Assembly (NCBI GenBank): GCA_036172245.1
Contig: JAYWIR010000033.1
Location: 1,116,001 to 1,180,000, forward strand
Direction of reading: 5' to 3'
Length of the DNA stretch: 64,000 bases
DNA from: Raillietiella orientalis
Taxonomy: Eukaryota
The notes under the pieces were generated by a model, which searched no databases, was not told the origin of the DNA, and saw only the letters and a list, made by a program, of their open reading frames with translations. Positions 6,120-50,291 of this stretch are shown here, piece after piece. Within the stretch, counting starts at the first letter, position 1. Each line of letters begins with the position of its first letter. A program made the translations under genes and the position numbers.

Positions 6120-6522
6120 TTTCCTTCCATCTCCCATCTCCCGTTTGGGTCGTTTCATCGCATCTCCACAAAGGAACGGTTCCCTTTCAAGTCGAATAGC
6201 GGCGGCCGCGTCCTGGCGACTTCGAGGAGAGCGTCCTGAACAGGCTTCGAAAAGCTCGCTCAGTGTCTCCGGGATGCACGTCCTCATCTTCCCAAAACCT
6301 CTGGAGCACTCCGAAAGCGAATGCAGTTGGCGCATTCGCTGGATACTCTCCCTGTCGATGTGTGGCGTCGTTCTTGGTTTTCAGAAGGAAAGCAAGAGCA
6401 GCAGCAAAGTGGTGCTGTCTGTGGCAACAGGGAGGGAACGGAGGCGTCGCGCAGCGAGCGCGGGATCTCGAAGATTCCTCTGGGAATCGGAAGAAACTCA
6501 ACCCACCTTTGCGAGGTAAGCA
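6120..6522 (+). repeat. Dispersed ~400 bp duplication, copy 1
   Basis: Near-identical to 49889-50291 in the same orientation; the ORF-track peptides are almost identical. Confidence 0.95.
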
Positions 6523-10600: not shown

Positions 10601-11379
10601 AGTTGCAGGGATGGGAGGATTTCATTGTGGGGGTGGAAACGCTGTTTCACAAGACAGAAATATCAGGCGCCACACCCGTTTCAGGCGGCTCCCTCAAGAA
10701 AGAAGGCCCCATCTTGCCTTGCATTTCATTATCGGAAGATTGTGGCAGCCTCCTAAACAAATTCCAGAAACACGCAGTAAGTTCTGCACGTTTCGACATC
10801 GCCGCTTGATGGATCTGTCGGGACGAAAATCAGAAGATCACAAAACAGACTGAAGATCTCGAACCATTCCACCCTGGAAGGCCACCTTCCTCTAAAGGGC
10901 GCCACAGTTATGCTAACTAAACACTATCGCGAATCACTCGAAGCGCTCAGCTGTCAAGGAAACAGGAATGCATACATTTTCTCCTCCTCGGGCTCTCCTT
11001 CACGCTTCTGTTGCAAAATATCACGTGCTTAACTGGCGCGTGCACGTGCAGCCGAATCGCATCGACACCTCCGCTTCCTCATTATGAAGCTGAAATCCCT
11101 AATGATCCTTAATCTGCAGGAGATCGATAACCAGATGAGCTGGGCTGAGCCCTGTGAGCCTTGCTCCTTCCCAGAGAGCATCCTACTCTGGACCATCCAG
11201 CATCGAAGCCCGCTCGAATCAAACGCATGGGATTTTTTTTTGCACGGTGCATGCAGCACCAGCGGGAAGTGAGGTGTCAATGGCGCGCACCCGAAGTCCT
11301 CACCCCATGAGAAAAAGAGAAATTTCAACAGGCCTGTCCACACTTGAGCACTGCCAATGCAGACCTTGGTCACATGACC

Positions 11380-12651
11380 CCTGTTGGCGGCCTTGAGGCT
11401 GCGGTCTACGCGCGTCGTCGAATCCCTGCGTGGAGGACCAGCGCCGAGATAACAGTGGACACACACCCGAGAAATGGGAGGGGTGTGTGTGTCGTAAGTT
11501 TCGAGTCCTTCCTCCCAGGGTGACGCTGGTTTGACACTTCGTCTTGCCGGGGCGTTTATTTATGTAAAAAGAGAAACACAATGGTCAGTGCCAGGACGCT
11601 CGGTCTTCCCACTTTACAAATGTAACCATGGAAACCAGCCGAGGACTGGCACGCAGGCCGACGAGGTTTGCAGAAAGGGAGGGGAAACAACAGAAAAGAA
11701 AACTGAAACAGAAAAAAAATACACGAAAAAACTGGGAGGGTTCGAGAAGGAGTCACTGGATGCTGGAGGGCGTCCTCTACATCCTTTGCAGATCGGCAAG
11801 TTTCTGTTTTAAGGTTTCCGGATGGGTCCATCTTGACGCAATCCTCATGAGGAGGACGGCAAAATAGATGGCATTCCTATCGTCCCAGACTCCTCTGGCG
11901 TTGCCCCATGCAGCCACGGTCCCGCCGTGTAGGCAGCAAAGTGCTGCTAGGGATGCGGCCGGCGTGATGGGGTCGCGCTGGAAGAGGCCCTTCATAACGT
12001 CTCTGGGGCTGCCCTCGGTGACACTCAGGGACTCTGCAAAACGTTCCCACAGGGGCGGAGGGCAAGCAGGATGACACCAGTCGGTCCACGTGCTTCGGGT
12101 GCGTCACTGCTGAATGTTTCCGTTGACCGACCAGGATTGGAAGTTGACCCTTTGGGATACTTCCAGGCATCATCCCCTTCGGTTGTGAAAATGGAGACGT
12201 CTATCGAGTACCATGGAGCTGGTTGATACGCAGACCCTTCGTAAATCGCTTCTCCAGAGTGCGAGATGAGCTCTGCTCCCCTCGGGGAGCGTCTATCAGA
12301 GAAATCTGGAAGCGTCTTTGCGGGGTTCTCGTCAGAGGAGGAAACCAGGAGCAGTTCCTTTGCAGGTTCACTTCGGAGAAGAAATTCAGGAGCAGATGCT
12401 TTCTGGGTTCCCTTCGGATGAAGAAATGGCGAGCTTCCCGGAGTCCAGGATCCAAGAAATATGAATCTAGGAAAGGTTCCACCGGAGCCTTTCCTGGATT
12501 CGTAGACTAGTTTCCTCCAGGAGTGCTCCCTAACTCGAATAGTCAGCACACACCCTCGGGCAACGTGGAGCTATGTGAAAGGACTTCGTGGGCCCCTAGG
12601 CGAACTTGTTCTTCAATACTTAGAGACCCTTCCCCCTCAAAAAAAAAAAAA
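11380..12651 (+). mobile_element. SINE-like repeat, copy B, split by a Tx1-like insertion
   Basis: Decayed head at ~11380-11530. The body resumes at 12067 (caggatgacacc...cttccaggcatc...cggttgtgaaaatgg...ccatggagctggttgata); poly(A) at 12639-12651. Confidence 0.7.
11531..12066 (-). mobile_element. 5'-truncated Tx1-like element (ORF2 C-terminus, 3' UTR, terminal motif)
   Basis: Peptide NAIYFAVLLMRIASRWTHPETLKQKLADLQRM; terminal AATAAACGCCCCGG...GTG motif at 11560-11535. Confidence 0.8.
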
Positions 12652-12699
12652 GGGAACACCAACTGAGTACAACTTCCGGTCTCATCGTTTCTGATTTCG

Positions 12700-13868
12700 A
12701 TCCGAGTTGCCATGGACTTCCGTATTTCGGCGGGAAAAAATCAGAAGTACCGAAACTTTTGATCTCGAGGATCCATGGGCGACTTCTGCGACGACAGCAA
12801 GAGGAAACCTCGGGCGCTACCTCAATCAGAAAGCATCCAGTCCGCTCTGTGCCGAGTGCGGCCACTTGCATGCCGGGATTCATCTCCTGCTATCTCTCTG
12901 CCACTTCACGCACGCCGCTGCTCGACTGAGCCTCTTGCTCGAGAGGGAGGAGCCAACAAGGAGCGAGTGTGCAGGAAGGATCCACGATGGACCTCTGCAT
13001 GCGGCACTCCAAATTCGTGGCGGCGAAGAGGCGTGACCATTCGATCAAGCCGACCAAGGTGAAGGACGGATGGAAAATGAGAGTTCGTGGCTTCGAACCA
13101 GTCCTACCCAGAAGGCAGCTTAAGACCCCTTACAGTGGTCATGTCCAACGTCGGCCATTCGGCGGCGGAGGCCCCTCCAAAGTGCTGGACGACACCTGTA
13201 CCCAGGCAAAGGACCGAAATTTTGAGCTCGCCTCCTGAAGAACTGTTCGTCCCTCCCATGTGCCTGCGATTCTCTCAGGTGGCGACAAGGCATGGGGGCT
13301 CCTCTTCCACTGGGATCTCCCTCGCACCCAGGGGAGCGCCTCTCCGGAGCATGGCGGGTGTGGGATGATGAGACCGCTCCCGCACCTGTCTAAGAACTGC
13401 GGTACCCTCCATTGGTTGCGGGAGAGGCCACAGAATTCCTCAAGATACGCCGCCGTCCTTCTTTCGGCATCGCCGCCGTGGCTGCGATGCAATGCCGCAT
13501 CCGTGGCAACCTGAAAGCCCTCTTCTCGAGCTGGAGCTGGAAGCCATCTGCCAACGCTGTCCCTTCCGTGAAGGAGGCTCGCACGTGGTCCCACTTGAAA
13601 GAGGAAGTTTTCAAGGAGGTCGTCAACCCCTCAACTCTGCCTCCACCCTCTGTCCTTCTCTGTTCTGTCCATCCTCCCTCCCTACCACTGCTAGGAACAA
13701 GTCCGAACGAAGTCAAGCGAGTCGGCGAACCTCCGGACTGAACTCGGTACTTTTTTCATGTCTGTGTTTTTTCCCTCCTTTCCTTGTTGATTCCCGAGGA
13801 AGAACGAAGTTTTTTGTTTTTCAGTACTTTTTATGAGGATTCGTCCCGGGGAGCGGCCGGGTGAGAAG
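12700..13868 (+). mobile_element. One or two decayed L1/Tx1-like ORF2 3' fragments
   Basis: Zinc-finger-like CAECGHLHAGIHLL (ORF 12707-13036) and LLFHWDLP...GGCG...PHLSKNC (ORF 13260-13514); CCCGG...CCGGGTG end motif at ~13845-13863. Confidence 0.55.
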
Positions 13869-15985: not shown

Positions 15986-16119
15986 GTGCGCACAACGTGA
16001 CCACATGGCCCGCGTTGGCGACCATGTGGCTGAGAATCAATAAATATCAAGAGAAGAGGAAAAAGGAGCCTGGGAGTGCGGAGAGTCCACCAGCACCGCA
16101 CTCTCCGGAGCCACATCTT

Positions 16120-17920
16120 CCTTGAGCCCTGCCTGCGATGTCCGACCTCCCCATTGTCGACTCAGGAATGGTCCTCCTGCCCCCCCTCCCTTTCCCAAAA
16201 TCGAGGGAGGAGCGAAGTTCTGCCTTTGCTTGGATGAGGCGCAGGGGCGTCCTCCAGCGACCTGGAGGTCGCAAAAACCGCCGCCTGGGAAGCGGTCCTC
16301 CGGCACCAGCAGCTTTCCCCTGCTTAATGAGCTGCGGAGGAGCTGGCAAGCCTGCAAGAGAAGCGGGAGGTACCCAGGGACGCAGGGTAGCCTCCGCTGT
16401 TCGAAGCCGCGCCCCTTCCCGTGCAGTGACCACCGGCGTCCCCTGTACGACTGCCGTGTTGGCGCCGCCGCACGCCGACGACCTCCGTCTCCTGATCCGC
16501 CTCAAAGACTTGGTGGTTCCGCGGCGGAATGCCCGTTCGGGCATCCCGACTCTGGAATGAATCGGCTGCAAGTGCATTCCCGAATGCTGACACTCTGTGC
16601 CAAGCTGTGGACATTCCCGTTGTGTGCCCCAGCACGCATCATCTTGGGGAGACGCGCCGGAAGCAAAGGACCGTTCTCGCTGCTGCCGAGCACACACAAG
16701 AGGATGAAGGGATTCGGCTTCCCACTCAGGCAATTCGCCTCCCTAGTGAACGCCCACCGTGCATCCCCTGCCGCCCGACGAACTTCAATGCCTGGCGGCA
16801 GGACGATGTTGAGTCCTGAGCGCATTTCAAGGAATGTGCCCTGAAGATCTTTGCCCCCCTGCGACACTTTGTTGCCTCCACCTTTGGAAGTGGCGAAGCA
16901 GGACTCGGCAAAGTGGTCGACCCTGGACGCTACGCCCCTCGCCGCAGCGCTGCCTGTCCTCAGGGCAAGAGATGACAGCAGCCTACCGACGAGGTGGGAG
17001 TTTTCCAGCACCATCGCGGGAAAAAACAGACTTCTCGGTGTCTGGAAGACGCGTGAGTGAGTGGAAGCTGCCACTCCGCGTGCTTTGGGGAAAGGACTCC
17101 TTCGGTGGGGGGAACTTTTGGGTGTTGCCCCCGAAGAACTTGTAATCCTTCCCCATTGTGTGGACGGTTCGTTGTTCCCCCTTCCCTGGAAGCAGACGGC
17201 GCCGAGTTTCCGGAGGGGTTGCACCTCCGAACTGTTCCGGGTGCGGGTAGACGGAGTCGATCCCGCCGCAGGTGCTTCTGGACTGCGCTGCCCTCCAAGG
17301 ACTGTGGCGGAGGCTGGCAGCAGCACTCCTGCACTAAGGGGACACCGCTCGAGATGGACTGCGGCGGTCCTACGCGCCGAGAGGCCTCTCGACGGGCGCT
17401 GCAATCGCAGCCAAGGGTTGCATCCGCGCCGTCGTTGAGGTTCGACAGATGCTGGAAACCGCCGCTCAGCGAAGGGAGGTCACCAGGATGGCAGCCACGT
17501 ACATGAGGGCGGCTGCAAGGGGGCCTCACCTGGAAGACGATGCCAAGGAGGAGATCACCGGCATCCACCGCCGGTTGATGGACGGTTTGGAAAGGCGGAC
17601 CCCAGAATCCTCGTCACCATTCTCTCTTTATATATATATTTTTTTGATTATTTTCCATCCCCGTTGGCTCCGTGAGTTCCCTGATGCTTTCTATTTTCAA
17701 CCTGGTAAACGCGGAGCAAAGGCAAATATCCCTGCCCTTTCCCATCCACTTTGTTTGTTTTTGTTGTCCCCTTATTCCTTCCCCGTTCGGACTCTCTATT
17801 GTCCCAGCCTGGGTGCCGTTATACCCCCACCCCCCTTGTTTCTTGTAGTCTTCGGTTGGGAGCTTTTGTTCCCAAACGGTTTATTTTTAATAAACGCCCC
17901 GGCGCGATCGGGTGAAAAAC
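16120..17920 (+). mobile_element. Long decayed Tx1-like element 3' portion
   Basis: Peptides FGFPLRQ, LGVWKTRE, KGLLRWGELLGVAPEEL and PHLEDDAKEEITGIHRR; pyrimidine-rich 3' UTR; AATAAACGCCCCGGCGCGATCGGGTG at 17889-17914. Confidence 0.8.
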
Positions 17921-18299
17921 CTCCGTCTCCTGCTCACCAGCGGGGTCTGTCGAGGAATTCGTCTAGCTGCCACGTCGTCGAACATGCGTGGGAGCGAAGC
18001 AGGACGAGGTCAAAGGTCGCTCCTGCAGACGCGGGATGGCAAGCGCAGCCGGACTGGCTCCACTTGAAGATTTCCGAGGGCAGCACCATGAAATACCATG
18101 GTACGCCCTTAGTTGACTTCTGTTCCGTAGAGGTTTTGGCTGCAGTTCTCTTCGGAAAACAGAATTGCCGCTGGGGCGGTACCAAGATGGCAAGGTTGGC
18201 TTCTGGGAACGGGACTCTATTTGTAATCTCTTCCTTGTCCCCTTCTCCAGCCCTCCTCTTTTTGCTCCGCTCCCGCCATGAGGGATGAGGCGCAAGACT

Positions 18300-19330: not shown

Positions 19331-21762
19331 GGACTCCAGAGTCAAGGAAGATGCCAGCAACTTTCCGAAGAAGTAGCGAGTATCTCTGTCCCTTCCCTTA
19401 TTTATCCATGACGTGTCCCCTCTCCTGCCCTCTTCCTGCTCATCTATGTAGCTGCACTGCCTTTTCTCTGTTTTTCCTTGTCTCTCGCTGGATTTTTCAT
19501 GGACCATTGGATTCCTTAATCCACACTGTCTGCTGATTCTTTCGGAGAAACTGGGTGAAGATGGCCGCGGCGTTGGTTGCACGGTGATTCCCAGTGCAAG
19601 GGCAGCGTTGCCACGTGCTACATTCAGGGCGGAATCCCTAATACAAATATTGGGGGAACGGTGGGCACTGCTAATCATCCAACAGGCTGCCCAAGGGTGC
19701 CTGCTCGCCAGACTATCCCTTGTAAGCGATCACGTGGTGTCGCAGCGTGCGGGAATTTTCGGCTCAGAGACTTCTCATTGCTTGCTTGACTGACACGTTG
19801 CTGCAGGAAGCCCCTCATTCACTCGGCCGTAGTTGCGGAAGAATGCTCGAAAGGATTGAAACGGAAATGATCTCATCTGACCCAGGAAGCCAAGAACAAA
19901 ATCCTTCTCATCTCTCTCATAGAGCCTCCGGGCAGCAATCAGGTGATCGGTGACCCCGTCTGTCTTTCAGACACCCTACAGTGACCTCATCACAGCGCTG
20001 CGTTTAGGAGCTTGGTTGGCTACGCCTCTGGAGTTTCTCGCTTGTTTGCTTCCTCATGATGATCAGTTGGAAACCAAGAGCAGCCCTCTCCCTGGTCACC
20101 ATCGCTAGGCTATTGGCGACAGCACCGGTCTTACAGTCTCAGCCTCTGACCTACAAGTGGACTTCCAAAACGTAGACAAACGCAGTTCCTTGTGGTGGGA
20201 AGATGCGATTGCAGCAGTGATGTCTTCGCCAGTCCACTGCAACGAACGTCAACCCGACAGTCGACTCTTCAGCGGGTTTGTGACCACGCGGTGACTGCGT
20301 TCCTTCAGGGCAATCTAGCGGGAAAAGGGGAGAATCTGAATATCAAACCAGGAGGTTCCAGCGGAAGAATTCGTAGAATTTGAGCTTGGTATGTGAAGAA
20401 GAGGAAGAAGAAGAAGAAGAAAAAACGCGCAGTTCTCCTCGCTTCAAGGACGGCGGCTGAGCACAGCGGCGATCAATCATCGCTTCAGCCCCACAGAAAT
20501 GCATGCATGCTGCCTGGAGAGATGGATGGTAAGGATTACTGCTTCACAGAAATTTCTCCGAGACCGAACTTCCGGAGGAGTGGACCGTGCTACCGACTAT
20601 CGTTGACGAATGTCTTAGCAGCAGAATTCTAAGAATTCCTTGATGAGATGGAAGAAATGTCTTCCAGTAGGTGGAGATTTTTGACTCGCTGCAGCTGAGG
20701 TAATGCAACAGCCACTTACGGACAGATAGGGGATCGGTCGTGCTTTCCATGAAGCTGCATCTTTTAAATTCACCTTCCCATTTACTAGCATCTACTTGGG
20801 ATACAATGAGAAAGGGTGTCCTCCTGTATGGGCGGAAAGCAAGTCCACCATGGATAAGGAACTCGGATCCACACGATTTGGCATCCCACGTAGCTCGTCC
20901 ACTCCTCTCTCAAGGGTAAAATCAACAGCTGTATCGCTGTCTCTTGCACTGATCATCCAAGGTGCAAGTCATCAAGCCCTTATGCATCGGTGGATACGAC
21001 ACAATGTGGTCGCGTTTTTTCTTTCTCCACATCCTTGATATCACACCTTTGCACTTGCTACGCAGAGGTCAGCATCATCACAAGATGTGGTACAGACTTA
21101 GTTCTCCAAAAATGAAGCGTTCGATTACCCTTGTACGTGACGGTTCTGAGGAGATCGCTTCGTGATGGCCGAAGTGCTGCAAAACTGCAGCAGTTATCTG
21201 GGAGTTTCTTCCCGAAACCGCTAAGACGTGTGCAGCGTGACTCACCTGAAGGAGTAAGTCACTGGTCCCGAAAAAAGGTGGCGCGCGCAAGAGCCTAGCC
21301 TACATCCGTCTCCCGTGACAGAACCGCCCCTACTGAATGCTGAACCCTGGTCCGTCTATCCAGTTTTCACTGACTCGCACTCTCCCTATCCCTTTCAGCC
21401 CACTGGTAGGAACGAAGTGGTTCCAATAGCGAAGGAGAAGTTCAGCTCCTCTCTTTGGAGACTCCGGAATTGGGAATTCGCTGAAGAGCATGCGACGCGA
21501 CCGGTCTTGGGAACGGATGGCGCTAAATCGTAAACCCTGCATCCAGCAGCTTGTTGCAGACTGGTTCCGAGTAGCTGTAGGTGAGCGTTGGCCGATCTGC
21601 CAGCGCGATGACCCTGCCCGCTGGCAGTGACGGCCTACGTAAACGACTTCCATCTCCCGCTATTCCTATCCTCTCCGGAGGCTTAGCTGGAAGAGTTCTT
21701 CTGCGGTGTTGCGGAGCGACGCATGGATCACCGGAGACAAATGCAAGGAAACCTTGGTTGGG

Positions 21763-22480
21763 TTGGCACTCGGTTGCGTCGGGGCATTTATTTACATGGA
21801 AATAAACATACAAGTCAGTGGCAGTACGCTTGGTGCTGCCTCGTTGCATACATACGAAAAGGACCCTGCCGAGAACCGGCACGCAGGCCGGCGTGGTCCG
21901 GAAGCATATGGGAAAGGGAGACAACAAAAAAGAAAAATAAAACAAAGAGCATATCAAAAAAAACATGGGGAGGGTTCGGGAAGGGATCACCGTGTGCTGG
22001 AGGGCGTCCTCTGCATCCTTTGCAGGCTGCGGCCAAGTTCCTGTTTTAAGGTTCCCAGAAGGGTATTCTCATGAAGAAGACGGCAAAATGGATGACGACC
22101 CTGTCGTTCTGACATTCTCTGGAGTTGCTGCATGCAGCCACGATCCCGAACGGGCATGGAGCCGGCGTGATGGCGTTGTGCTGGAGAAGGTGCTTCAGAA
22201 TGTCACTGGAGTTGCCCTCGGGGTTCCTCAGGGACGCGACAAGACGTTTCCACAAAGGACGGAGGGCAACACAATCTATGTGGGACTCTATGGGGAGGGA
22301 CTCTGTTTCTCCGCACCTGCTGCAGTTGGGACTTGCACCCTCTCGGGTCAAGTGGTGTCGGCAGGCGTCGCACGGGAGGCCCCAATGCAACAGCAGGGTC
22401 GCCGACTCCTGCCACTTTAGATGAAAGATTGTGCTGTTGGACGGGTGGGCTCATCTGCGAGGGTGGTGGCGGAGGACAGC
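21763..22480 (-). mobile_element. 5'-truncated Tx1-like element
   Basis: Peptide HWGLP...PNCSRCGETESL..HIDCVALRPLWKRL...LLQHNAITP; terminal motif at 21792-21767. Confidence 0.85.
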
Positions 22481-27364: not shown

Positions 27365-28384
27365 CAACTTGGAGGATGGCTCCTCCGCGCGCGGTCGTGC
27401 ACAAGCGTCGCGGGTTCGAGTCCCTCCCGGGGAAGGATAGACTCCAGGGTAATGGGTGCGTCGTGAGTTTCCAGTTGCCTCCGTAGGATGACACCTGTAG
27501 GCTTCACATGCGGCGCTGGTTGACACGCAGCCACGCCGGGGCATTTGTTTATAAAAAAAGTAAACGAACACGCCTGTGGCAGGACGTTTGATCCTGCCAC
27601 GTTACTTATAACTACGAGAAGAAATCTGCTGGGAACTGGCACGTAGGCCAAAGAACGGGGAGGGAGGTCAGGAAAGGATTACTGTGTGCTGGAGGGCATC
27701 CTCTGGATCCCTGTAAGGATGCTGGCAAGTTTCTGTTTCAAGACTCCCAAATGGGGTCATCTTGACGTTGTCCTCATAAAGAAGACAGCAGACTTCATAT
27801 GCGGCGCTGGTGGAAGCCGGAAACCTCATGATGCCCCCATGGACTGATTGGGGGTGGGAGTCGACCTCTGGAGTCCCTACAGGCATCAAGGAGCTCATCG
27901 AGGTTCCTCTCCGGTTGTGAAAATGGAACCGTCCGTCAAGTACCATGCAGCATGTTGTTGATGCCCCTTTCAGGAGGCCGCCTCTCCAGAGTTCAAGAAT
28001 CGCACTGCTCCTTTCGAGGAGCGCCTTTCAGAAAAATCGAGAAGTATCTTTCCAGGATTCTCTTCAGAGGAGTAAACAAAGAGCTGTTCTCTTGCTGGTT
28101 CCCACCGGAGAAGAAATGAAAAGCAATCCCACGAACCGAGGTTCCACCAGAGAGAATAAGGAAGAGATCACCTTCGAGTTTCCCTCCCAAGGAACGGACT
28201 CCTTCCTCCGGATCCTTCCCGGGTCCTTTCGTGATTCTCCCTATAAATTGAAGAGTTGGCACAAGCACCCTCGGGTGGCGTCGACAGTGTCAAGGAGCTG
28301 CGTGAGTCCCCCTTCCTAAAGAAGCGGACGGGTCTTCAGCAATCAGAGAGCTAACAAAAAGAAAGCCTTAAAAAAAAAAAAAAA
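27365..28384 (+). mobile_element. SINE-like repeat, copy C, split by a Tx1-like insertion
   Basis: B-box GGTTCGAGTCC at 27413-27423; body resumes at 27793; poly(A) at 28370-28384. Confidence 0.8.
27521..27792 (-). mobile_element. Short (272 bp) 5'-truncated Tx1-like element with 19-bp TSD
   Basis: Homologous to the 3' end of the 33.6-35.1 kb copy; flanked by CTTCA(C/T)ATGCGGCGCTGGT at 27502-27520 and 27793-27811. Confidence 0.85.
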
Positions 28385-28479
28385 GTTGGAAGGGAAGCAG
28401 CGAAAACAGAACTAAAGAGAACAGAGGAACTATTTCCATCATCCCAGGCATCAACACTCGCAAGTTGTTCCAGGAGATC

Positions 28480-29441
28480 GTCCGCAGAAGATGCGGTGGG
28501 CCTCGTTTACCCCCTTCCCCCCTTCTCTCGTTCTAGTGTTGCCCTGCCTGAGGGACGCAAGGGGCAGTGTAATCCCGAAAAGGTGGGAAGCGACACGCTA
28601 CATAGGAACAAAGACAAAACTTCTGGGCAGGTGGACAACTCGACACTGCGATCCCGGATGTCCCTCCCCACGGACTTGTACGCCGAGGAGAGCTGCTCAA
28701 CATCCGTACGGAGGAGGTGAAGTGGCCTTACTGTGTTGGGACAGTGGCGCCATCCCCCTCGAGTAGCAGGAGTCGGCATTGCTGGTGCTGCATGGGGAAT
28801 TCCGTGCAAAGCTCGCCTTCACCACTGGACACGGGCAGCGTGGACGCTCAGTGAGTCAGGTGCGGGAAGAAGGACACCCTCCCGCACTTGCTGCTGGACT
28901 GTGCTTCCCTCCGACACCTTTGGGATTACCTCGCGACGATCCTAGGTATCCCGGCGTGCAGCACCAGGGACATTTTCAAACGCCTCTTAGAGCGTGCCGC
29001 CAGCCGCGTCCCTCGCAGATCTCTGCTGTGTTCGCGGGATCACAGCGGCCTGGAACAGAAGAGGAACGCCAGAAGAAAAGACCGAAAGACAGGGACGCCA
29101 TCCACTGGGAGCGGATCTTCCTGAAGACCGCCTCGGGATGGCTGTACCTGGGCGTTATACGGACGGAATTTGCCGGCATCGTGAACAGGACGCAGAGCAT
29201 GCCTGGCAGCGTGCTGTGATCCCTTCCTCGTCCCCCCCTCCACGTGTACAATTTCCCCTCCCCTGTTTTTGTGTGTTTATTTTTATTTTTTGTTTTACTC
29301 TCCCCCACGCCGCCGAAACGGACCTCCGGTTTGCTCACCGGTCTTGGACAGGTTCCAAGCACATGGTAGAACCAAGTGTTCTACCACACCAATAAATTTT
29401 TATTGCTTTATGTAATAAATGCCCCGGCATTACCGGGTGAT
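28480..29441 (+). mobile_element. 5'-truncated Tx1-like element
   Basis: Peptides LLDCASLRHLWDYLATILGIP and DAIHWERIFLKTASGW; AATAAATGCCCCGGCATTACCGGGTG at 29414-29439. Confidence 0.85.
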
Positions 29442-30851
29442 AATCATCCTAAGCCAATAGCAATGCTCTCCCCGAGAGGTCGCTACTGGTCTTTTTAGCT
29501 CCCTAAGAGAGCTGCTGTCACGGACCTCGTCCAGCTGCTTTGTCTGGCTGATGACTCACACAATGCATCCAATACTCGAACGTCCAGTGCCCTTGCAATC
29601 GTGTGGACTGTGCTGAATATGGGAACGCTTTGTCTACGTGCGACTAGTCCTGCTACAGTCCATCTGCCCTCGCTCTTTGGATCCATCACACCCAGGGAGC
29701 ACACGGCTAACTCTTAGAGCTGCACCTACACCCCTCGCCTCTCTTCGTTTCAGCTTGCTCTTCCACCAGACGACGAGGTTAGGATGTCGGTCGTAGCGAT
29801 TGGACATTACGCTGCGTCATCTCATCTGCCACGAGGCATCCTCTGTGCGTACGATCTTCATGCTCCCTCGGGGGAGCTGCTCGTGTGGGCTGCAAATCAG
29901 AGCGTGCAAGGGGAACTATGCGCGTCTCCATCTTCTGCCTATGATGCCTTCTGGGTCGTCCCTTTTAGAAAGTACCCTCCAGCTTTTGAAAGAGGCGTGA
30001 CTACGCTCACTTGGAAGTCTGGAAGATTTGTAGCAGAATAGGCGTCACAACCACCTAATCTTTGCTGTTAGTCGTCGATTTTCTTGCGATCCGAGTGTTC
30101 GCTCTCCGGGAGAGTTCCTTGATCCAGCAACTTTTCAGAGACCTAACGATTTTTCTGCAGGACTCGGTTCTTCATATTCTCTGAGAAATTGCGATCACGA
30201 AAGCATTTCCCTTTGTCTTCAGGGTTTGTCATATCAAATCATCATTACGGACTTCTGGTTTTGGAAGCTCTCAAGGAACATCTGTCCCAACCAGGAACTC
30301 CTTTTTCAGTACTGCCTGTGCAACCATTCCTGGAGGGACGTTCGGTTAAGCTGATGTACTCCCCGGATATTAGGGGTTTATCCGTTCGAGGCAGAACTGT
30401 GTGAAGCAGAAGATGCCAAAGAAATGTTCGAGTCTGCTCTGTTTCAGAAAGAGGTGGGGCTGTCAGGCACCCTGACTGGAAGCAGGCAAATGACAAAGAG
30501 AACATCTCATACTGCAGAAAGGAGCATTTCCTTCAGATCAACGGGAATGAAAAGCATTTTCCCCTGCAGGCTGATTTCCACGAAGAGAGCCAAAAAAAAA
30601 AAAGCTGGCCTACTTCGAGAGAACACGATTCACAAGGGCTCCTCCAGAAAGATGAAAAGACAGCAACACAAGAATAAGTACAGGAGAACCCAAAGTGTCC
30701 CACAAAGACTAACAGACATGTGAAAATCCAAGGCTCCAAGAAAACGAAAATGCCGAAATGATTGCAAACAAAAGAGGAGCATGGCGGTTGATGAAACAGC
30801 ATATCAGAACTTCGAGCTGGGATCATTAACTTTACAGTAGGACTTTATGAC

Positions 30852-31140
30852 AAAGAGACGAAGAATGTTCAAAGACCTTTTGTGAAGCATTGGCCGATGC
30901 AATGAGAGAGGGAACGCAGTACCAAACTGTATTCGTTTACGATAGTGGAGCAGAAATTTACGTAAGAATGACTGAGGTCCAGAATGAGCATCTCTTTGAA
31001 CTCTACTCTTTCAGGAAGCCAAAATACCCTTTTTCTGTAGGGCAAGTGTCATCGCAGATGATCTCAGGGAAGAATGCAAGAAACAAGGAAACAAAACCAG
31101 AGGTCCTTTCAAAGTTTGCGAAATCATGCAGGCTGAATAA
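30852..31140 (+). pseudogene. Possible spliced exon pair of an unidentified gene or pseudogene
   Basis: Removing a 53-nt GTAAG...CTCTTTCAG segment (30962-31014) gives ...ALADAMREGTQYQTVFVYDSGAEIY|EAKIPFFCRASVIADDLREECKK...; in-frame stops on both sides; no recognisable domain. Confidence 0.2.
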
Positions 31141-31329
31141 AGTGTGGGCGGCATGCTTTTCCATGTCTTTACCGCTCCACAACTCTTGCCGCGGAGTGGT
31201 CTGGGTTTCTGTCTGATCCGTCGCTTTGGAGGGCCCACTTGACACTACAAACTCGTGTATCCGAACTCTGGCTGACGTCTCACCCCTCTAAATAGCATGG
31301 CAAGGAAGGCTGCTGATATGGGAGGTAGG

Positions 31330-32670
31330 GCAAGTTTTCATCGTAGGACTTACCATTCAGGAATCAGGGATTGCCCATACACGGAAGCAAATACTTCTTC
31401 GATGTGTTTGTCTTTCTCCCGGATGCGAATGTGCCATGCAAGTTATTTCAGCAGTACAGGGCTTCTTTCGCTTCCGCCGCGCAACCTACGCCGTGGGATC
31501 GCATTTGGCTACCCCTCGAGGCATCTGTCCTCGTTACTGTTAGCCCATCCGTGGATCCCCTGCCCCCCCGTGAGCTGGAATGCCTGGCGGCAGGGGGCTC
31601 TGGAGTCCTGGGCTGCCACTTTGGAAGTTGGCTTAGAAGTACTGCGGTCGCTTCCGGGTCTCCTACGCAAACCGCTGGAAGATCTCCTGAAGGATTGGAT
31701 GCAATGGTCACTGAGAGCCGTCACACCCTTTGCTGCAGCACTGCCTGCCCTCAGAGCAAGAAATGACAACAGTCAACCGGCGAAGTGTGAGTTCGTCTGC
31801 AGCCTTGCAGGAGTCGAGAAGTTCCTTGACGGCTGGAAGACGAGGAGGGAGTTGCACTCCTCGTTTCTGTGCGAGGGGACTCCTTCGGTGGAGTGACCTG
31901 CTGGGTGTGCCCCCCGAATAACTCGTGATCCTCTCCCTTTGCGTGGACACCTCCATGTTCCCGTCACGCTGGAAACAGGATGTTCTGCTGTTTCTTCGCT
32001 GGGCATTCCAATGAAATCAGCGCAGGCACCTGCTTTCCGGGGGAGTTGTCTCCCCGAACTGTTCCAGGTGTGGTGGGACGATGGAATCGCTCCCGCACCT
32101 GCCGTTGGACTGGTGGACCAAGGATAGGACCCTGGAGGCCCTGGAGGGTGCACTGGGGGACACATGGTGGAGACTCCCTTCGGCGCTCCGACAACCGCAA
32201 TATCCCACCCGGTTTGGACTTGCTGCGACGTTTCTTCACAGAAAGCGGGCTGAAGAAGAGCGCTGCGATCCGTGCCATGGTGACAGCCCGCCAGGTGTTG
32301 TAGTCAGGTTCGCGGCCAAGGGAGGCCACCAGCATGGCAGCAGCAGCACTCATGAGGACAGCAGCGAAGTGACTTCATGTGCCAGAAGTCGCCAGGGAGA
32401 TCGTTACTATCGGGAGCCGCTTCTAGAATGGAAGAAAGGTCTTTAACCAAGGACCTATGTCGCCATCCTCTCGTCTCTTTTTGTTTATTTATTGTTCCCC
32501 TTATTTATGTCCTCCGTTCCCTACTTTTTGGAATCCGGCCTGCGTGCCTGCTGAACTTTTTTTTTTTATTGGCATATCTTGTTTTTGAGGGGTTCTTTGT
32601 TCCTCTCCCTTGTAGTTTGTTTGTTTGTTTGTTCCTTTTAAAAATAAAACATCCCTGCGTATTGGGGCAG
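31330..32670 (+). mobile_element. Decayed Tx1-like element 3' portion
   Basis: Peptides VTPFAAALPALRARND, FLDGWKTRRE and GLLRWSDLLGVPPE; 3' UTR motif ggcctgcgtgcc; AATAAA at ~32643. Confidence 0.8.
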
Positions 32671-33099
32671 CCCTGTACTCCGATGGCGAAGGGTTGAAAG
32701 AGGCTGTCCGTGAATTGCGACAAGAAGACTTTTGGAGAGCCCCTGAAGAAAATGCGGTGCTGCCATCGATGCAGATGCGGCAGAGGAAGGGGAGCAATCC
32801 ATAGCAAACAGATACAGAAGAAATCATCATCTCTCTCGCCATCCTCTCTCTCACCGCGCCGCCCATTGCATTTTCTCGAATGCTCTGCGAGAGTGTTTTA
32901 CAACCGAGTGGGAGAGAAGAGCAGAACTTTCAGAGATGATGAAGATGGCTCCTCTTGAAATACTCCGCCATTTGTAGAGATTTGTAGCGCAGTTGAATAA
33001 TGCACCGTCTTTAGGAACGAAATACGAGGTGACGATGATTTTTGATTTATGAGCGAATTTTATCCGGTAACTAAAGCGATGAATTGAGCTGCTTTCATG

Positions 33100-35260
33100 A
33101 TAAGTGCCCAAAAACCGCTCGCCTCCTTAGGGGGCGAGCGAAGAGCCTTCAGCACTGTCCACGGCACTCGAGGGTGCGTCTTCAAGTTATAGGGGGTATC
33201 TCGGGAGGGAACTGTCCTATGGATCAGGAAGGCTCCGGAAAAGGAGTCCCTTCCCCTCTTACTCTTTGGAAGGGAATCCCTAAGGGAAGCTTCTATTCCT
33301 TATTCTCTCCGGAGGGACCCCTGGAGGGAACCATTCTTCATTTCTTCTCCGAAGGGGACCCCGTAGGGAACTGCTCTTTCTTTACTCCACTGAAGGGAAC
33401 CCAGAAGGAGATGCTTCCCAATTTCGCTGGAAGGGAGCGCTTCTTACACTCTGGAGAGCTATCAGCCAGCTCCATGGGACGCGAACCAGTTCCTTGATGC
33501 CCTGGAAGGACCCAGGAGGGTCCAACTTCTCAATCCCGGCTAGCCAGTGGGGGAGCATTCGAGGGTTTCCAGCTTCCACCATCATCGGTCCGAGAAAGGA
33601 AGTGCCTGGTGGCAGGAAACCGCTCTCCTGTGGACGAGGACCCAGGAGGCAAGCGCGGAACAGGGGCTACAGGAAAAGTCTTTCCTGCACGCGCTCAACA
33701 ACAACTGCACGCTCCGGGAGATCCTGGAAGATCCCGCGAAGCGTTGTGCTCGGGCTCCTGCTCTAAGCGTCTATTTCTTTCGCCTTTTACTAAAGAAATC
33801 CGTGGGCAGGAGCGTCTAAAAGAGCGAATCTTTGTGAGTGCCCTCTTAGGTTCTCGCCGGAACAATGGGAGTTGACCTTCGGTTCCTCCCATGAATAGAA
33901 GAGTAGGGAGTTCCCCCTCCGGTCGTGCAACGGAGAGCGGACCCCCGTCACCGAGGGACCACCTCCGGTTTCAAGATGGAGCAAGAGCCCTCACGGGCAC
34001 CTCTCCAGTTGTTCAAAGGAGTAACCCCCTCCTGTTGGGGGGTCCCTCCGAGTCGTCGCCTCTTCACAGAGTGCACAAGGAAGCAAGCGAGAGCGATTCC
34101 CTGCGGGGCAAACAGAACCTCTGTCGCCGCTGCGCTGCCTCCCTTAGGGAACACATGGATAGCAGCCCTACGGCTAGGTGGGAGGTTACTGTGGAAACCT
34201 CCGTAAGGAGGAAAGGACTGGGCGAGTGGACGAAGGGTTCGCTCACCGACTCTGCGACCCCGATTGCTCGACCTCGTGGGCTTTTGCACTGGGGCATGCT
34301 ACTGAGTATTCCGGAGGAAGAACTGCAGTGGCCCCCGGTGCTCATGAACACCCGCACCCTCCCTTTAAAGTGGCAAGGATCGGCACTTCTGCTGCTGCTG
34401 CACTGGGGCCTCCCTGGCAACGCCCGCCGGCATCTGTGGGCACGGGTGTGTGTGAACACAAACTGTGCAAGGTGCGAGGAGAGGGGAATCCTTTCTGCAC
34501 CTCCTGGTAGACTGTGTTGCCTACGGCTCCTTTGGGGACGCTTGGCCACGACCCTTGGAACCCGCGGCTTCAACGCCAGAGACGTTGTAAAGCACCTCTT
34601 CCTGCGCAATGCCTCACGCCTGATGCATCCCCAGCAGCACTTTGCTACCCATGCGGCGGTATCGTGGCTGCATATAGCAACGCCAGAGGGAGCCAAAACG
34701 ACGGGAACACCATCCATTTTGCTGTCCTCTTCCTGAGGACAGCGTCAAGATGGCCCCATCCGAGAACCATAAAACAGGAACTTGCCGGCATCCTTACAAG
34801 GATGCAGCGGGCGCCCTCCAACACACAGTGATCCCTTCTCGAACCCCCCCGCCCTCCCTTCATCTTTTTTGACTGCAGTTTTTTGTTTTGCTTTTTTTCC
34901 TCCTGTTTGTCTTCCCTTCCCTTGTGCTTCCGAGGCGCACCCTGCTGGCCTGCGTGCAAGATCCCGGCAGGCTCCTTTCCGTATTCATAAGTAACGTTGC
35001 AGGATCAAATGTCCTGCCACAGACATGTAGGTTTGTTTTATAAATAAACGCCCCGGCGTGACCGGGTGTCAACCATCACCGCACCCGAAGACTATAAAAA
35101 GGCCAATCAGTGTCATCTTGCCGGGGAGAAACTCGAAACCCATGACGAACCCCCCTATTTTCAGCGTCGAGACTCCCTCCCCCCCCGGGCAGGATTCGAA
35201 CCCGCAACGCTCGGTACTACGCGCTGAGACCGCGGCAACGCGGGCTCTTATGACAGTGGG
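33100..35260 (-). mobile_element. SINE-like repeat, copy D, split by a Tx1-like insertion
   Basis: Minus-strand head with B-box GGTTCGAATCC at 35202-35192, running down to 35072. The body resumes at 33587 (tggtggaagctgg...gtccttccagg...ccatggagctgg). Confidence 0.8.
33588..35071 (+). mobile_element. 5'-truncated Tx1-like element with 281-codon open remnant (33891-34736)
   Basis: Peptide GLLHWGMLLSIPEEEL..TLPLKWQGSALLLLHWGLP..NCARCEERG..LWGRLATTLG; AATAAACGCCCCGGCGTGACCGGGTG at 35043-35068. Confidence 0.85.
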
Positions 35261-36079: not shown

Positions 36080-37080
36080 ACGGTCCTTCGGGACTTCGGT
36101 GGGAGCCGCCGCCCGAGCGCGGTATCGCATTGGTGTCGTCCGATGGGGGGCGTCCCGGGCGCAAAGTGTCGACACGGGTCGGCGGCGTTTCTTTCCCGGT
36201 CGAGGCGCAGGTCGTTCCCGTTTCGGCAAAAGCCTGCTCCCTGTCCTGACGTCACAGCAGTTCCCGAGCGCCAAATGCGGTTGAACGCCGATGCAAGCGG
36301 AGGTGAAGTGGCCCCCAGCGTCTTGGGACAACGGCACCCTTCCCCTGCAGTGGCAGGAGACGGCGTTGCTTCTGCTCCACTGGGGACTTTTAAGCAGAGC
36401 ACGCCCGTCTCACTGGACATCGGGAAGTGTGGATGCCAACTGCGCAGAGTGCGGGGAAAGGGAGACCTTCCCTCACTGAATCATCGAGTGTGTTGCCCTC
36501 CGTCAGATGTGGGACTGACTCTTGTCGATCCTGAACATTCCGGGGGGCGACCCGAAGAACATTTTTAGACGCTTCCTGATGCAGGACGCCATGCCAGCCT
36601 CCGGGTGTGTAGCAGTGCTCTGTTGCATACGCGGAATCCTGGATAAGTGGACCGCGTCAAGAAGAGGCCGCACCAGTGGGAGTGCCATTCACTGGGCAGC
36701 CATCTCCTTGGAGAAGGCCTGCCGTTGGCGCCGACTTAAGAAACATTTGTCGGCACTTGTTCGCATCCGAAACCGGATGCAGAGGCCTCCTCACGGCGTA
36801 CCGTGATCCCCTCCCTTCCCCCCCCCCTCCCAAAAAACATTGCCCCCCCCATGAGTGTTTCTTTTTTTGTTTTTTTTTTTGTTTTTCCCGCCCCTGCGCC
36901 AGTGTGGGGGACCTTATCGGCCTGGGGGCCGGTAAGGACAAGTGCCCCAAGACAGTCGGAACGTGTGTTACGGCTGAAAAAAATCATACAAAACAGTGAA
37001 AAGAAAAGGACTTTATTATAGAATTTTTTATTGTAAAAAGTTTGAATAATAAAAGCCCCGGGTCACCCGGGTGAAAAACC
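36080..37080 (+). mobile_element. 5'-truncated Tx1-like element
   Basis: Peptides TLPLQWQETALLLLHWGL..ANCAECGERETFPH and SAIHWAAISLEKACRW; terminal motif at 37048-37073. Confidence 0.85.
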
Positions 37081-37129
37081 TCAGCGAGCGTGCCGATCAA
37101 AGTCCCGAAGGATCTTAAGGACGAATGTT

Positions 37130-39849: not shown

Positions 39850-40567
39850 CATGCGGTCTAATTCTTTCGGTGTGTGGAAACGGCAGCATCTCGTGGTGTT
39901 TCCATACTCGCTGCGAAATGGTCCACGGCGCCCAATCCCGAGTTTTGGGCATCGGCAGGGATCCCCTGCTTCGTGGCCCGTGTTGCGGCAGGGAATCGTC
40001 AGGACCAGTCCTGCCTTCCAGAGCTTTTGGAGAGAACTGCTGCTGTTTTACCACTCTTGTCAGGCTCGCCTTTGAACTGTGCCAATTGCGGGGGAGTCTT
40101 TCCCGCACCTGTCCGTGGAGAGCATAGTCCTCAGGAGTGAGTGGAAACGTCTTGCCGCGGTCCTGCAAATTCCTAAGTTTCGACCGCCGTGAGAGGCGAC
40201 ATTCCTCTCCGCTCCAAGAGGAACTTCGTTAACAACCCAAAGGACGTTACGAAGTTCCTCTTCGAGCGGAGAGGAATGTCGCCTCTCACGGCGGTCGAAA
40301 CTTTCTGCTGCTTCAATGGCGTGCTGAGGGTCCCTCTAAAGTTCGATAAAAAACAAAACAAAACAAAAAAAGTCTCCTCTTTTTTTGGTTTTTATCTTTT
40401 TTTACTCCCCTCCTCCCTTCCCATGTTCGGCCTCTCTTGGCAGCCCGCTCGTGGCTGGAGGCGCCTCCTGAACTCCGAAAGATGCAGTGAGATTTCCACT
40501 CCCCATTACGAATGAATGGCCTTTATTTTTTATTTTTAAAAGAGACGCCCCTGCGCGACCGGGGCCA
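39850..40567 (+). mobile_element. Strongly decayed Tx1-like 3' fragment
   Basis: WRELLLFYH and LNCANCGG..FPHL remnants; T-rich UTR; decayed end motif cgcccctgcgcgaccgggg at ~40546-40564. Confidence 0.5.
40175..40303. repeat. 55-bp inverted repeat (one mismatch) with 19-nt spacer
   Basis: 40175-40229 is the reverse complement of 40249-40303 except for one C/C position. Confidence 0.95.
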
Positions 40568-43228: not shown

Positions 43229-45496
43229 GGCTCGCGCTGGCGCATATGTGGCCCCAGTTCCCGCGCGTGGTACCGAGCGTTGCTGGTTCGAATACCCGTG
43301 AAGAATCGGCGCTTTAAGTGCCTGGGAGTCCCGTTGGGGGACTTCTGCGCAGCAGAAGTCCGGTCAAGTCTATTCAATGGCAAATCCCTCTTGACCCACG
43401 AACTGCCCTGTAGAATGCTTTCTTGGCTCCCCTTCTCCGACCCCCCTGCTTGTTGTCTGCCACTTGCTCGGAGATGTGAAAAGGCGGACCGAGGACCCTC
43501 CGCGAAAGCCTTCTAAGGAATGAAGAGGTCCCGGGTCCGCTCGAAGGACTTGCGAGCGACACGTGGAGACTCTGGGCTCGGTGACCTGACGCTGGGGAGG
43601 ATGAAGCGCCAGCTCCCGTGTAGAAGATTAGCCCTATTATCCCCAGGCAAAGTTCTCGACCAGCCACTGGTGCGTCCCAGCCAGGCTCCTGGCCAAGCCA
43701 TCAGCCGCCGTCGAGGGACTCGGTGCGTTCCTCGTGCATGGCCACCGAGAGTTGTCCCGATGCACGTACCCACTCCGGCAAATGGTTGCCTTGGTTCAGG
43801 AGAACATAGGAATGTCCTGCCGCCCCACCAACAGTAGTGTCTGGAAACAGGAAACGGATCAGGCGTGGGAGGAAAGAAACGGCACAAGCCCAGAGCAACC
43901 GCGATGCCTGCGATTCTCTGATGATGCTCGCTGCCCGTTACAGAAGTCATGGACTACCCAAGAAGGACCGCCTGAGTGCGGAACGTCCCACTCGCCGCCA
44001 CGCTCAACATGATCCCACAAAGTGGGCATGGAGCTGGCCTTGAGAGATGAGAAGTACCCTGCAAAATCGCGGGGAAAAAAAGCGACTGGGATGCTGGACT
44101 GCGCGTCAGCTGGATGACGCATGTACCCTCGCCGCTTTCTCCCCCGAAGGGATTCGTCGCTGGGTGGAACTCGAAGACATTCCTCCTGAAGGGATTCCTC
44201 CAGTGTTTGTGGACAGCCCCACGCTTTCCCTGGAGTGGCAGGATTCGGCATTGCGGTTGCTGCGCTGAGCCATCTCGTGCGTTGCACGAGTCCACCTCTG
44301 GACGAGGGGAGTGCGGTCCCAGACTGTGCCAGGTGCGGGGAACGGGAAACCTTCCTTCACCTGCTGTTGGATTGCGTTGCCCTCCTGAACGTCTGGGGAC
44401 GCTTCGCTGCAACCCTTCCTACTTCCGATGGGCAACGGCAGAGAGATCTTGCGGTGCCTCTTCGCGCGCGACTCGATGTCTCCTGCAGCTTCCTCCCCTT
44501 CAGCCCCGTGCTGCCCTCATGGGGTCATGGCGACGAGAGGACGCTCCCCAAGAAGCCAGTCGAACGGTGAGATCAACGCGATTGCCTGCTCCTTCGTGAG
44601 GAAGGCGACAGGATTGCCACCTCTCCGCCAACAAAAGGAGGAAGTTGCCCACGTCCTCCAGAGGATGCTGTGGACGCCAGGAAGGAATCTGCAATCCCTC
44701 CCCATGGCCTTCCCCCCTTTTTAAACCGAACTTTTCAGTCTTTGTTTGGTTTGTTTGTTTTTGCTCACCCCCTCTTCCACGCCCCCCTGCAGATCTCATC
44801 GCAGAGCTGCTCGCGAGTTGCAGCGCCTTGAAGGCATCTCCCCTCGCAGTGGTGATGTGAAGTCACTACGAAAGGAGCCATTTTTTTTTTGTCACTATTT
44901 TATATGACTGTCTTTTTTTTGCAATGAGCTCACCCACGTGACCGGGTGAGAATAAAGGATCGACACCACAGAAAAGGGTGCGTCGTGGCTTTGGAGCCCC
45001 CCCCCCCCGCAGGATGACGCTGACTGGCCTATTCGGGTGTGGCACCTATCGAAGCCTGGAACCGGATGCCTCCATTGAATGGCCATGGAATTAGAAGTCG
45101 ACCCTCCGGGGTCCTTCCAGGACATCAAGCAGCTCTTCGGGGATTCCCTTCCGGCTGTAAAAATAGAGCCGTCCGCTGCGTTCCATGGAGCTGGTTGATA
45201 ACCCCCTCCGGAGCAAGTTGCCAAGCTGTCACCCTTCAGCGAAGTTCGGAAGCGTCCCTCCGGGCTTCTCTTATCAGGAGAGTAGCAAGGAGCGATTCCC
45301 TCGCAGGTTCTCTCCGGAGAAGAAATTCAAGAGCAGATGTTTCCTGGATTCATAGGTGCTCCCTCTTGGATTACCTCGGGTGACGTCGGCAAACGTTAAA
45401 GAGCTTCGTGAGTCTTCCCCAAGGAGGGCAACGGTTCTTGAGCACTTAGCAAATTCCTCAAAAAAAAGGAAAAAAAAACCCGAAAAAAAGAAAAAA
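43229..45496 (+). mobile_element. SINE-like repeat, copy E, split by a sense-orientation Tx1-like insertion
   Basis: A-box-like TGGCGCATATGTGG and B-box-like GGTTCGAATAC (43285-43295). The body resumes at 44953 (ggatcgac...gatgacgctgactggcctattcgggtg...ccatggagctggttgata); A-rich tail at 45459-45496. Confidence 0.75.
43313..44952 (+). mobile_element. 5'-truncated Tx1-like element
   Basis: Clearest zinc finger, CARCGERETFLHLLLDC (44325-44375, zf-RVT-like); peptides INAIACSFVRKA and KEEVAHVLQRM; end motif gtgaccgggtg at ~44938-44948. Confidence 0.85.
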
Positions 45497-49888: not shown

Positions 49889-50291
49889 TTTCCTTCCATC
49901 TCCCATCTCCCGTTTGGGTCGTTTCATCGCATCTCCACAAAGCAACGGCTCCCTTCTAAGTCGAATAGCGGCGGCCGCGTCCTGGCGACTTCGAGGAGAG
50001 CGTCCTGAACAGGCTTCGAAAAGCTCGCTCAGTGTCTCCGGGATGCACGTCCTCATCTTCCCAAAACCTCTGGAGCACTCCGAAAGCGAATGCAGTTGGC
50101 GCATTCGCTGGATACTCTCCCTGTCGATGTGTGGCGTCGTTCTTGGTTTTCAGAAGGAAAGCAAGAGCAGCAGCAAAGTGGTGCTGCCTGTGGCAACAGG
50201 GAGGGAACGGAGGCGTCGCGCAGCGAGCACGGGATCTCGAAGATTCCTCTGGGAATCGGAGGAAACCCAACCCAACATCGCAAGGTAAGCA
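49889..50291 (+). repeat. Dispersed ~400 bp duplication, copy 2
   Basis: Near-identical to 6120-6522. Confidence 0.95.

Follow-up and report, generated by a model that had tools for sequence, protein, structure and literature searches.

The two insertions described here lie in a window of 64 kb (contig JAYWIR010000033.1, positions 1,116,001 to 1,180,000) taken from the 210-Mb, 491-contig assembly of Raillietiella orientalis. Each consists of a long interspersed nuclear element (LINE), designated family A, placed within a copy of a dispersed short interspersed nuclear element (SINE). Comparison of the window with the whole genome makes it very probable that family A inserted by target-primed reverse transcription (TPRT) at one phosphodiester bond of this older and abundant SINE, and that the site was recognised by its own endonuclease or open reading frame (ORF) 2 protein (ORF2p). 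The fixed junction was found on the SINE sense strand at ...GCGGCACTGGT^GGAAG, with one base being ambiguous, and the LINE was always antisense.

Family A insertions at one nucleotide of a SINE

At the first locus, the transfer RNA (tRNA)-like head of the host SINE (27382..27520, plus strand; nhmmer, model positions 70-213; B box/T-arm GGGTTCGAGTCCC) extended up to the cut site. A 19-bp target site duplication (TSD), CTTCACATGCGGCGCTGGT at 27502..27520 (plus), recurred with one mismatch as CTTCATATGCGGCGCTGGT at 27793..27811 (plus). The two TSD copies enclosed a 272-bp 5'-truncated 3' end of family A (27521..27792, minus strand, 84% identical to the family-A consensus), which started with TGACAC in SINE orientation, the LINE end being ...GTGTCA without poly(A). 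The host resumed with GGAAGCCGGAAACC at 27812 and continued through its body and A-rich tail (27812..28482, plus; model 202-884, E 7e-113). The second host was on the opposite strand, with its body and tail at 33093..33577 (minus; model 210-784, E 1e-91) and its tRNA-like head (GGGTTCGAATCC) at 35072..35251 (minus; model 48-206, E 1e-34). A 10-bp TSD with one mismatch between its copies (ACCATCATCG at 33578..33587 at the LINE 5' junction, ACCATCACCG at 35072..35081 at the 3' junction, both plus) flanked a 1484-bp insert (33588..35071, plus). This insert was recognised from its translations, was colinear with full-length copies and was 91% identical to the family-A consensus; its LINE portion amounted to ~1.12 kb, comprising the 3' part of ORF2 (with the C-terminal CCHC motif CARCEERGESFLHLLVDC, frameshifted) and the 3' untranslated region (UTR), split by a secondary insert. 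Read along the LINE, the 3' end was ...GTGTCA at each locus, with ACCA next to it, and the 5' junction was preceded by ...CTTCC.

The sequence-only reading had proposed antisense insertions at the same nucleotide of both hosts, and on re-reading the sequence the junctions were confirmed as described. The lengths of 272 and 1484 bp also held, but ~360 bp of the longer insert (33746-34105) proved to be a secondary piece composed of U5 small nuclear RNA (snRNA) and a young SINE. Similarly, the shorter insert was 5'-truncated as claimed, but the truncation was not simple, as its 3' UTR had additionally lost ~80 bp internally. The two copies were 79.5% identical. Neither of the two findings named in advance as damaging to the claim was encountered: no flanks outside the SINEs were shared within 2 kb on each side of both loci, and the short insert was not a deletion derivative of the long one, having its own TSD-bounded 5' end, its own ~80-bp deletion and consensus bases where the long copy was mutated. 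The single strong flank match was an unrelated LINE fragment located downstream of the first SINE but upstream of the second.

The model of the host SINE, built from 22 empty copies, described an element of ~800 bp in which a tRNA-like head is followed by a repetitive body and then an A-rich tail; the consensus of its T-arm/B box was GCGGG-TTCGAAT-CCCGC. The orientation was set by premature poly(A) plus TSD in two copies (L144, L156) of the young subfamily SINE-Y, which ruled out the opposite orientation. ARAGORN and Rfam, run on the window SINEs and eight further loci, returned no tRNA or RNA family (best E about 1, as by chance), the heads being too decayed. The possibility that the real target is an RNA gene of the host was rejected based on the lack of a tRNA or Rfam family and on the loci of the target 14-mer, 29 of 30 of which were SINEs or SINE-LINE junctions and the last a headless SINE body. 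By its sequence features the host is a dispersed, non-coding, tRNA-derived SINE. Derivation of its tail from family A or its sister family B was rejected too, since no homology was found between the SINE and either family, and so the SINE is probably mobilised by a LINE other than the one that targets it. In one further locus (L140) and at 15989-16030 of the window, the SINE 5' end stood head-to-head with its own inverted copy (GCCACATGGCCGCCAACGCGGG-CCATGTGGC), perhaps reflecting 5' inversion during insertion.

Genome-wide, the last 16 bases of family A were matched exactly at 126 places, 87 of which continued with A[CT]CA, in comparison to ~1% expected for random bases; the junction is thus not a product of chance. 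Given ~10% divergence between copies, 87 of 126 is what near-complete targeting would leave. The flanks were evaluated in 57 ends chosen without regard to them (30 similarity-search loci and the first 30 exact-end matches, three duplicates removed, the long window copy included). A SINE adjoined 48 of the 57 ends and was present on both sides of 31; its head lay directly downstream in antisense at 41, its tail was found at the 5' junction of 38, and at least 10 of 15 target bases (TGGT^GGAAG, antisense) were matched at the junction of 43. SINE-adjoining ends made up 21 of 27 in the position-ordered subset and 26 of 29 in the similarity-ranked one (window copy excluded). Kojima (2015) regards an element as target-specific when one sequence type occupies more than 20% of its flanks, and the 48 of 57 ends of family A exceed this share. 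Consistently, among copies retrieved via the start of the reverse transcriptase (RT), 2.5 kb from the 3' end, all seven that had a 3' end (L063-L070) stopped at the site. The site was also approached from the SINE side with an upstream 14-mer pattern, which occurred at 251 places; 24 of the first 100 listed ran into a LINE end (tallied by eye), and the first 30 loci fetched comprised three 3' junctions, three 5' junctions, 23 empty sites and one headless copy. Of the SINE copies with the upstream motif, between about one eighth and one quarter were thus occupied. Copies with TSDs outside the SINE used near-cognate words with seven of ten matches (GTGGT^AGAAC in L092, CTGGT^GGGTG in L007), and tandem family-A insertions into a regenerated target were found in L003, L008, L085/L086 and L110/L111.

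The junction search and the tabulation of truncation points and TSDs suggested with the original claim of independent events were carried out. At 33 loci with a TSD of at least 5 bp, the inserts ranged from 36 to 1546 bp and the TSDs from 5 to 20 bp, with a mode of 15 (seven cases). Over 37 filled loci, the mean identity was 82% for LINE pairs and 65% for host heads; head identity was 0.647 between filled hosts, 0.675 between empty ones and 0.659 between filled and empty. LINE and host identities were uncorrelated (Mantel r −0.02, p 0.50, 37 loci), and the filled hosts were interspersed with empty copies in the SINE tree without forming a clade. The varied truncation, scattered hosts and uncorrelated divergences therefore indicate that the insertions are independent and not a hitch-hiking composite; together with the SINE beside 48 of 57 ends, they extend the claim of independent events at a sequence-defined site to the genome as a whole. 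The proposed comparison of LINE-LINE with SINE-SINE divergence was weak for the window pair (79-82% versus 67-79%, depending on the aligner). The test on truncated copies is that used by Kojima for SINEU-3, and the outcome is alike, according to the available part of PMC4494074.

Family A, its sister families and an endonuclease without the hairpin

When 204 bases from the 3' end of the LINE were searched at the DNA level, 746 candidates came up, of which 40 were scored and 30 fetched; one of the fetched copies extended into the RT domain and led to near full-length copies of ~5 kb. Family A possesses a two-knuckle ORF1 and an ORF2 with an apurinic/apyrimidinic endonuclease (APE)-type domain, RT and a C-terminal CCHC motif. 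PF00078 (RVT_1) was detected in family A (E 2e-6) and PF03372 (Exo_endo_phos) in family B (E 6e-14), the corresponding region being present in family A. The two ORF1 CCHC knuckles occurred in both families, with Pfam zf-CCHC at E 0.02, below the cut-off; an ORF1 with CCHC zinc knuckles is a feature of the Tx1 clade. The nearest solved structures were those of human L1 ORF2p. The nearest protein clusters were eukaryotic, with a few arthropod, chordate or cnidarian members, and since the best database proteins were ~30% identical and all but one unnamed, family A may belong to either the L1 or the Tx1 clade. Judging by its domains and the hallmarks of TPRT (variable 5' truncation, a fixed 3' end and TSDs), family A is an L1/Tx1-type APE non-long-terminal-repeat retrotransposon. 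Every inspected copy carried stops or frameshifts; family A appears extinct, and there was no sign of a host function in these copies. Its 3' stem-loop showed only modest folding (z −1.76). One 3.07-kb copy (L031:6165-9239) had intact ends and a 15-bp TSD, with the entire endonuclease region deleted between ORF1 and RT.

The related families were 72-77% identical in DNA and included one with a relaxed target and several with different strict ones. Subfamily R is the older, relaxed sister of family A. Five of its 25 loci adjoined a SINE (two at the main site, two ~28 nt upstream and one unclear), and the rest were scattered with only ACC/CC in common; the TSD search scored at least 10 in three of the 25. 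The third LINE-in-SINE of the window is an antisense copy of R (11531..12065, minus; host SINE at 11370-11530 and 12066-12707); its cut site, the near-cognate GACGCTGGT, precedes that of family A by ~28 nt in the SINE. Family B is a younger sister of ~5.55 kb (92-94% identity between copies, L071-L082), whose copies lie in antisense immediately after the endonuclease region of family C, a third related family of LINEs (e.g., L073, L075, L076, L079 and L081); one copy, L080, is inserted off-target between its own TSDs and carries at its 5' end a piece derived from that target. Two antisense insertions of family D, which has a 3' end ...GGGTGAAAA followed by TCGAA, were located at the B box of SINE-Y (L169, with a 17-bp TSD, and L240), and its other copies lay where ORF1 of sister LINEs ends (loci L169, L240, L244, L249, L077 and L078). 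For family D as a specialist of the SINE B box there are these two cases, and none among the first 100 of 353 B-box matches, a count that is uninformative because the search pattern excluded SINE-Y. A further family, B' (L250, L251), was antisense in the ORF1 of a sister LINE. Divergence from consensus, in samples weighted to well-kept copies, was ~20% for the old SINE, 8-19% for R (one outlier of 33%), 6.6-19% for A, 2.3-7.7% for SINE-Y and 2.5-7.5% for B.

The spacing between the GDFN and IDH motifs of the endonuclease was measurable in 27 of 30 loci of families A, B, B', C and D. It was 37 residues in 23 of these copies and 107-110 nt in the other four, in comparison to 56 residues in human L1 and 55-65 in 91 of the 101 measurable homologues (of 157). 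In all five families, the betaB6-betaB5 segment (~20 residues, anchors T192-S202), containing the HP..R.YTW motif, was absent. Every inspected family-A endonuclease copy was broken, family B had an open one (L062:2322-2987, minus), and the domain was therefore modelled from family B (AlphaFold, pLDDT 94, 50 sequences). The model kept the fold of the L1 endonuclease (L1-EN; Z 26, rmsd 2.2, 209 aligned) and showed a short loop and a short helix in place of the betaB6-betaB5 hairpin; it distinguishes only loosely between a residual stub and a complete deletion. In the available parts of the published studies, the hairpin of L1-EN inserts into the minor groove (PMC8565326), deletion of the loop in human L1-EN nearly abolishes nicking (PMC1950540), and the hairpin alone does not explain the choice of sequence (PMC8565326, PMC1950540). 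With the hairpin absent, the model implies that specificity must be read by other surfaces, or be aided by RNA pairing or protein tethering. In the literature searched, no retrotransposon endonuclease that naturally lacks the hairpin was found.

Recognition of the target site and competing explanations

The fixed junction marks the first TPRT nick, and since this nick falls on the SINE sense strand, the LINE is always antisense; the second nick is the variable one and sets the TSD at 5-20 bp, most often 15. The distance from the B box to the cut varied from 45 to 149 nt in 34 hosts (29 of them within 89-120) while the nucleotide stayed fixed, and thus the site appears to be defined by sequence and not by distance from the B box, some indels being younger than the insertion. 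The five nick-adjacent bases were conserved in 54, 51, 53, 47 and 47 of the 57 ends, versus 33-41 of 57 elsewhere in the target. We infer that the endonuclease itself reads the target sequence, so that the APE endonuclease, or the whole ORF2p, would recognise ~9-10 bp around the nick (CTGGT^GGAA). By a rough count from 184 kb, the genome should hold ~7,000 copies of a 9-mer such as TTCCACCAG, which is on the order of the SINE copy number; about 9-10 recognised bases would therefore suffice. The SINE would supply most genomic copies of the target word, so that even a moderately specific nuclease would reach ~80% SINE targeting, and it may serve as a harmless and plentiful landing pad. The specificity would have been tightened from a relaxed ancestor, sister R preferring only about ACC/CC after its 3' end, and the target would be read without the usual betaB6-betaB5 hairpin, lost across the lineage. 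A strict endonuclease of this kind has a precedent in that of Tx1L (Tx1L-EN), which nicks its own target almost exclusively (PMC1950540, available part).

Several points weigh against this reading. The samples were biased to well-preserved copies, and a SINE was absent from both sides of 9 of the 57 ends. The comparison of the target core between filled and empty sites was biased by the selection rule and was not counted as support. Taken by itself, the window pair shows overlapping divergences for LINE and SINE. The fold evidence comes from sister family B, and the loss of nearly all nicking on deletion of the L1-EN loop sits uneasily with a hairpin-less enzyme that would read sequence. Furthermore, not all loci are separate: L094/L095 are a near-identical duplicate pair (LINE 99% identical), L085/L086 and L110/L111 have a common host each, and four copies (L001, L012, L015 and L017, the long window copy among them) begin at a common 5' end ~1.1 kb from the 3' end. 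The duplicate pair and the common 5' end would suit a history in which one LINE-carrying SINE was amplified as a composite, by retroposition or duplication, with the different lengths arising from later deletions. This history is very improbable and already largely refuted by the sequence comparison, as the filled hosts are scattered among empty SINEs, are equally divergent and show no divergence in parallel with their LINEs, as every truncated copy is bounded by a TSD of its own, and as the LINE contains, at the 5' end common to the four copies, a GTGCCGCCCC stretch with microhomology to the TSD, the four hosts being unrelated.

Recognition could also lie outside the nuclease. Polymerase (Pol) III factors bound to the A and B boxes of the SINE might recruit the LINE complex, with a weakly specific nuclease taking the nearest TGGT^GG; Dictyostelium TRE elements, which insert near tRNA genes, offer a parallel for such tethering. 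In most hosts the B box precedes the site by ~100 nt, which would fit, as would a nuclease without the usual DNA-probing hairpin and the slight SINE enrichment of relaxed sister R (5 of 25, at two sites). We consider tethering unlikely, given that the nucleotide stays fixed over B-box distances of 45-149 nt (although some indels may postdate insertion), that near-cognate sites outside the SINE are in use, and that sister families B and D occupy fixed sites in LINE coding regions without a Pol III promoter. Somewhat less likely still is that flank sequence carried on the LINE RNA, by read-through or co-transcription, pairs with the target and supplies the specificity, as described for R1/R2-type elements. 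All but two of the off-SINE ends begin with ACC/AC, full-length family-A copies start with a degenerate echo of the target (GACGCCGCAC), and the family-B copy L080 carries its target-derived 5' sequence off-target. Against such pairing, ACC(A) also stands in the left TSD wherever both junctions are visible and hence was already in the target, and no longer target-like extension was carried off-target by family A in the sample.

SINE-Y, known systems and the meaning of SINE targeting

The SINE-Y subfamily (L144-L171), found through the secondary insert of the long window copy, is young, and its target has been rewritten to CGTGGC[AC]CCGGCGGTGGATA. None of 80 SINE-Y motifs carried a family-A end, versus 24 of the first 100 listed old motifs (Fisher p 2e-7). 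Escape of SINE-Y from family A is a hypothesis here: the bulk of SINE-Y copies postdates the bulk of family-A copies, so timing alone can give 0 of 80, an outcome with a probability of 0.2-0.45 at 1-2% exposure. A broader scenario, which we hold to be rather improbable, is a radiation of hairpin-less LINEs that repeatedly evolved long specificities for other retroposons only (A for the SINE; B, B' and D for sister LINEs; D also for the SINE-Y B box), nearly always antisense and by recognition other than a minor-groove hairpin, with a SINE lineage escaping family A through its rewritten target in an arms race.

The secondary insert itself joins a full-length U5 snRNA retrocopy as its 5' part (33746..33854, plus; Rfam RF00020, 69.3 bits, model 1-117) to an internal 250-bp SINE-Y piece (33856..34105, plus; 94.4% identical to the SINE-Y consensus) without poly(A) or TSD. 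The chimera as a whole lacks a TSD and has the same orientation as its host LINE. Divergence from the respective consensus was 5.6% for the SINE-Y piece and 8.9% for the host LINE. A U5-headed SINE family was rejected, as the U5-SINE join was found only in the window copy (40 scored matches, 11 other U5 copies); in none of these 11 was U5 followed by a SINE or LINE. The chimera arose either by template switching during the LINE's own reverse transcription or by a later microhomology-primed event; if template switching is true, SINE-Y and family A were contemporaries. Chimeric snRNA retrocopies of the U6/L1 type are known, and in them, too, a full-length snRNA is fused to the 5' side of a retroposon piece that has the same orientation; the present single case differs in that it lies within a LINE, lacks a TSD and joins U5 to an internal part of a SINE.

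Further 3' ends of the same LINE lineage were noted in the window at 17884-17923, 37043-37082, 29409-29448, 44930-44955 and 21761-22419; two of these are followed by ACCTC (a possible further target), one is sense-oriented before SINE position ~116, and one belongs to the relaxed subfamily outside a SINE. Other repeats in the window included a 55-bp near-perfect inverted repeat (40175-40303), a 411-bp direct duplicate (96%, 6120-6530 and 49889-50299, 43.8 kb apart) and a 101-bp tandem duplication (56398-56611).

Among known systems, the available parts of PMC4494074 and PMC1950540 describe Tx1L of Xenopus laevis, which inserts in the piggyBac-type Tx1D. Both Tx1L and family A are APE-type L1/Tx1 LINEs at a fixed site in a dispersed mobile element, and the first nick of Tx1L is sequence-specific; Tx1L-EN has an 11-residue betaB6-betaB5 hairpin, whereas the family-A lineage lacks the segment, and family A targets a tRNA-headed SINE. 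From the same part of PMC4494074, Tx1-Mar and SINEU-3 target Mariner-N4_AMi, Tx1-8_Crp and Tx1-4_AMi target LTR elements, and Tx1-9_AMi targets Harbinger, with further Tx1 targets given in its supplements. These systems resemble family A in antisense insertion at one site, tandem insertions around a ~15-16 bp TSD and sister families with different targets, and the on-target share is similar (90% for SINEU-3, 84% for family A); their targets are DNA transposons and LTR elements, whereas the present lineage uses a SINE and sister LINEs. The human LINE-1 ORF2p endonuclease (PDB 7n8k, 1vyb) has the same fold and the catalytic motifs N, QE, Y.P, GDFN, ID and SDH in common. It differs in that the lineage described here is 19 residues shorter between GDFN and IDH, with no hairpin in the model, and in that the human target is TTTT/AA, whereas family A has a long specific target and no poly(A) 3' end. 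The characterised APE endonucleases (L1, Tx1L, R1Bm and TRAS1) all have the protruding betaB6-betaB5 hairpin that this lineage is without. No LINE targeting a SINE was found in the literature searched, most subscription journals being outside its scope, and the available parts of PMC3747384 and PMC8869645 contain no such case.

The strategy of targeting transposons is thus known already, and it is the SINE as target class and the hairpin-less nuclease that are unusual. With family A, SINEs join the repeats in which sequence-specific LINEs can land safely, here at the scale of a genome. The lineage is informative on specificity since the loop thought most important is absent, and its close families with relaxed and strict targets form a natural series for the question of APE endonuclease specificity, unsettled by L1 loop grafting, which is of relevance to the engineering of site-specific retrotransposon insertion.

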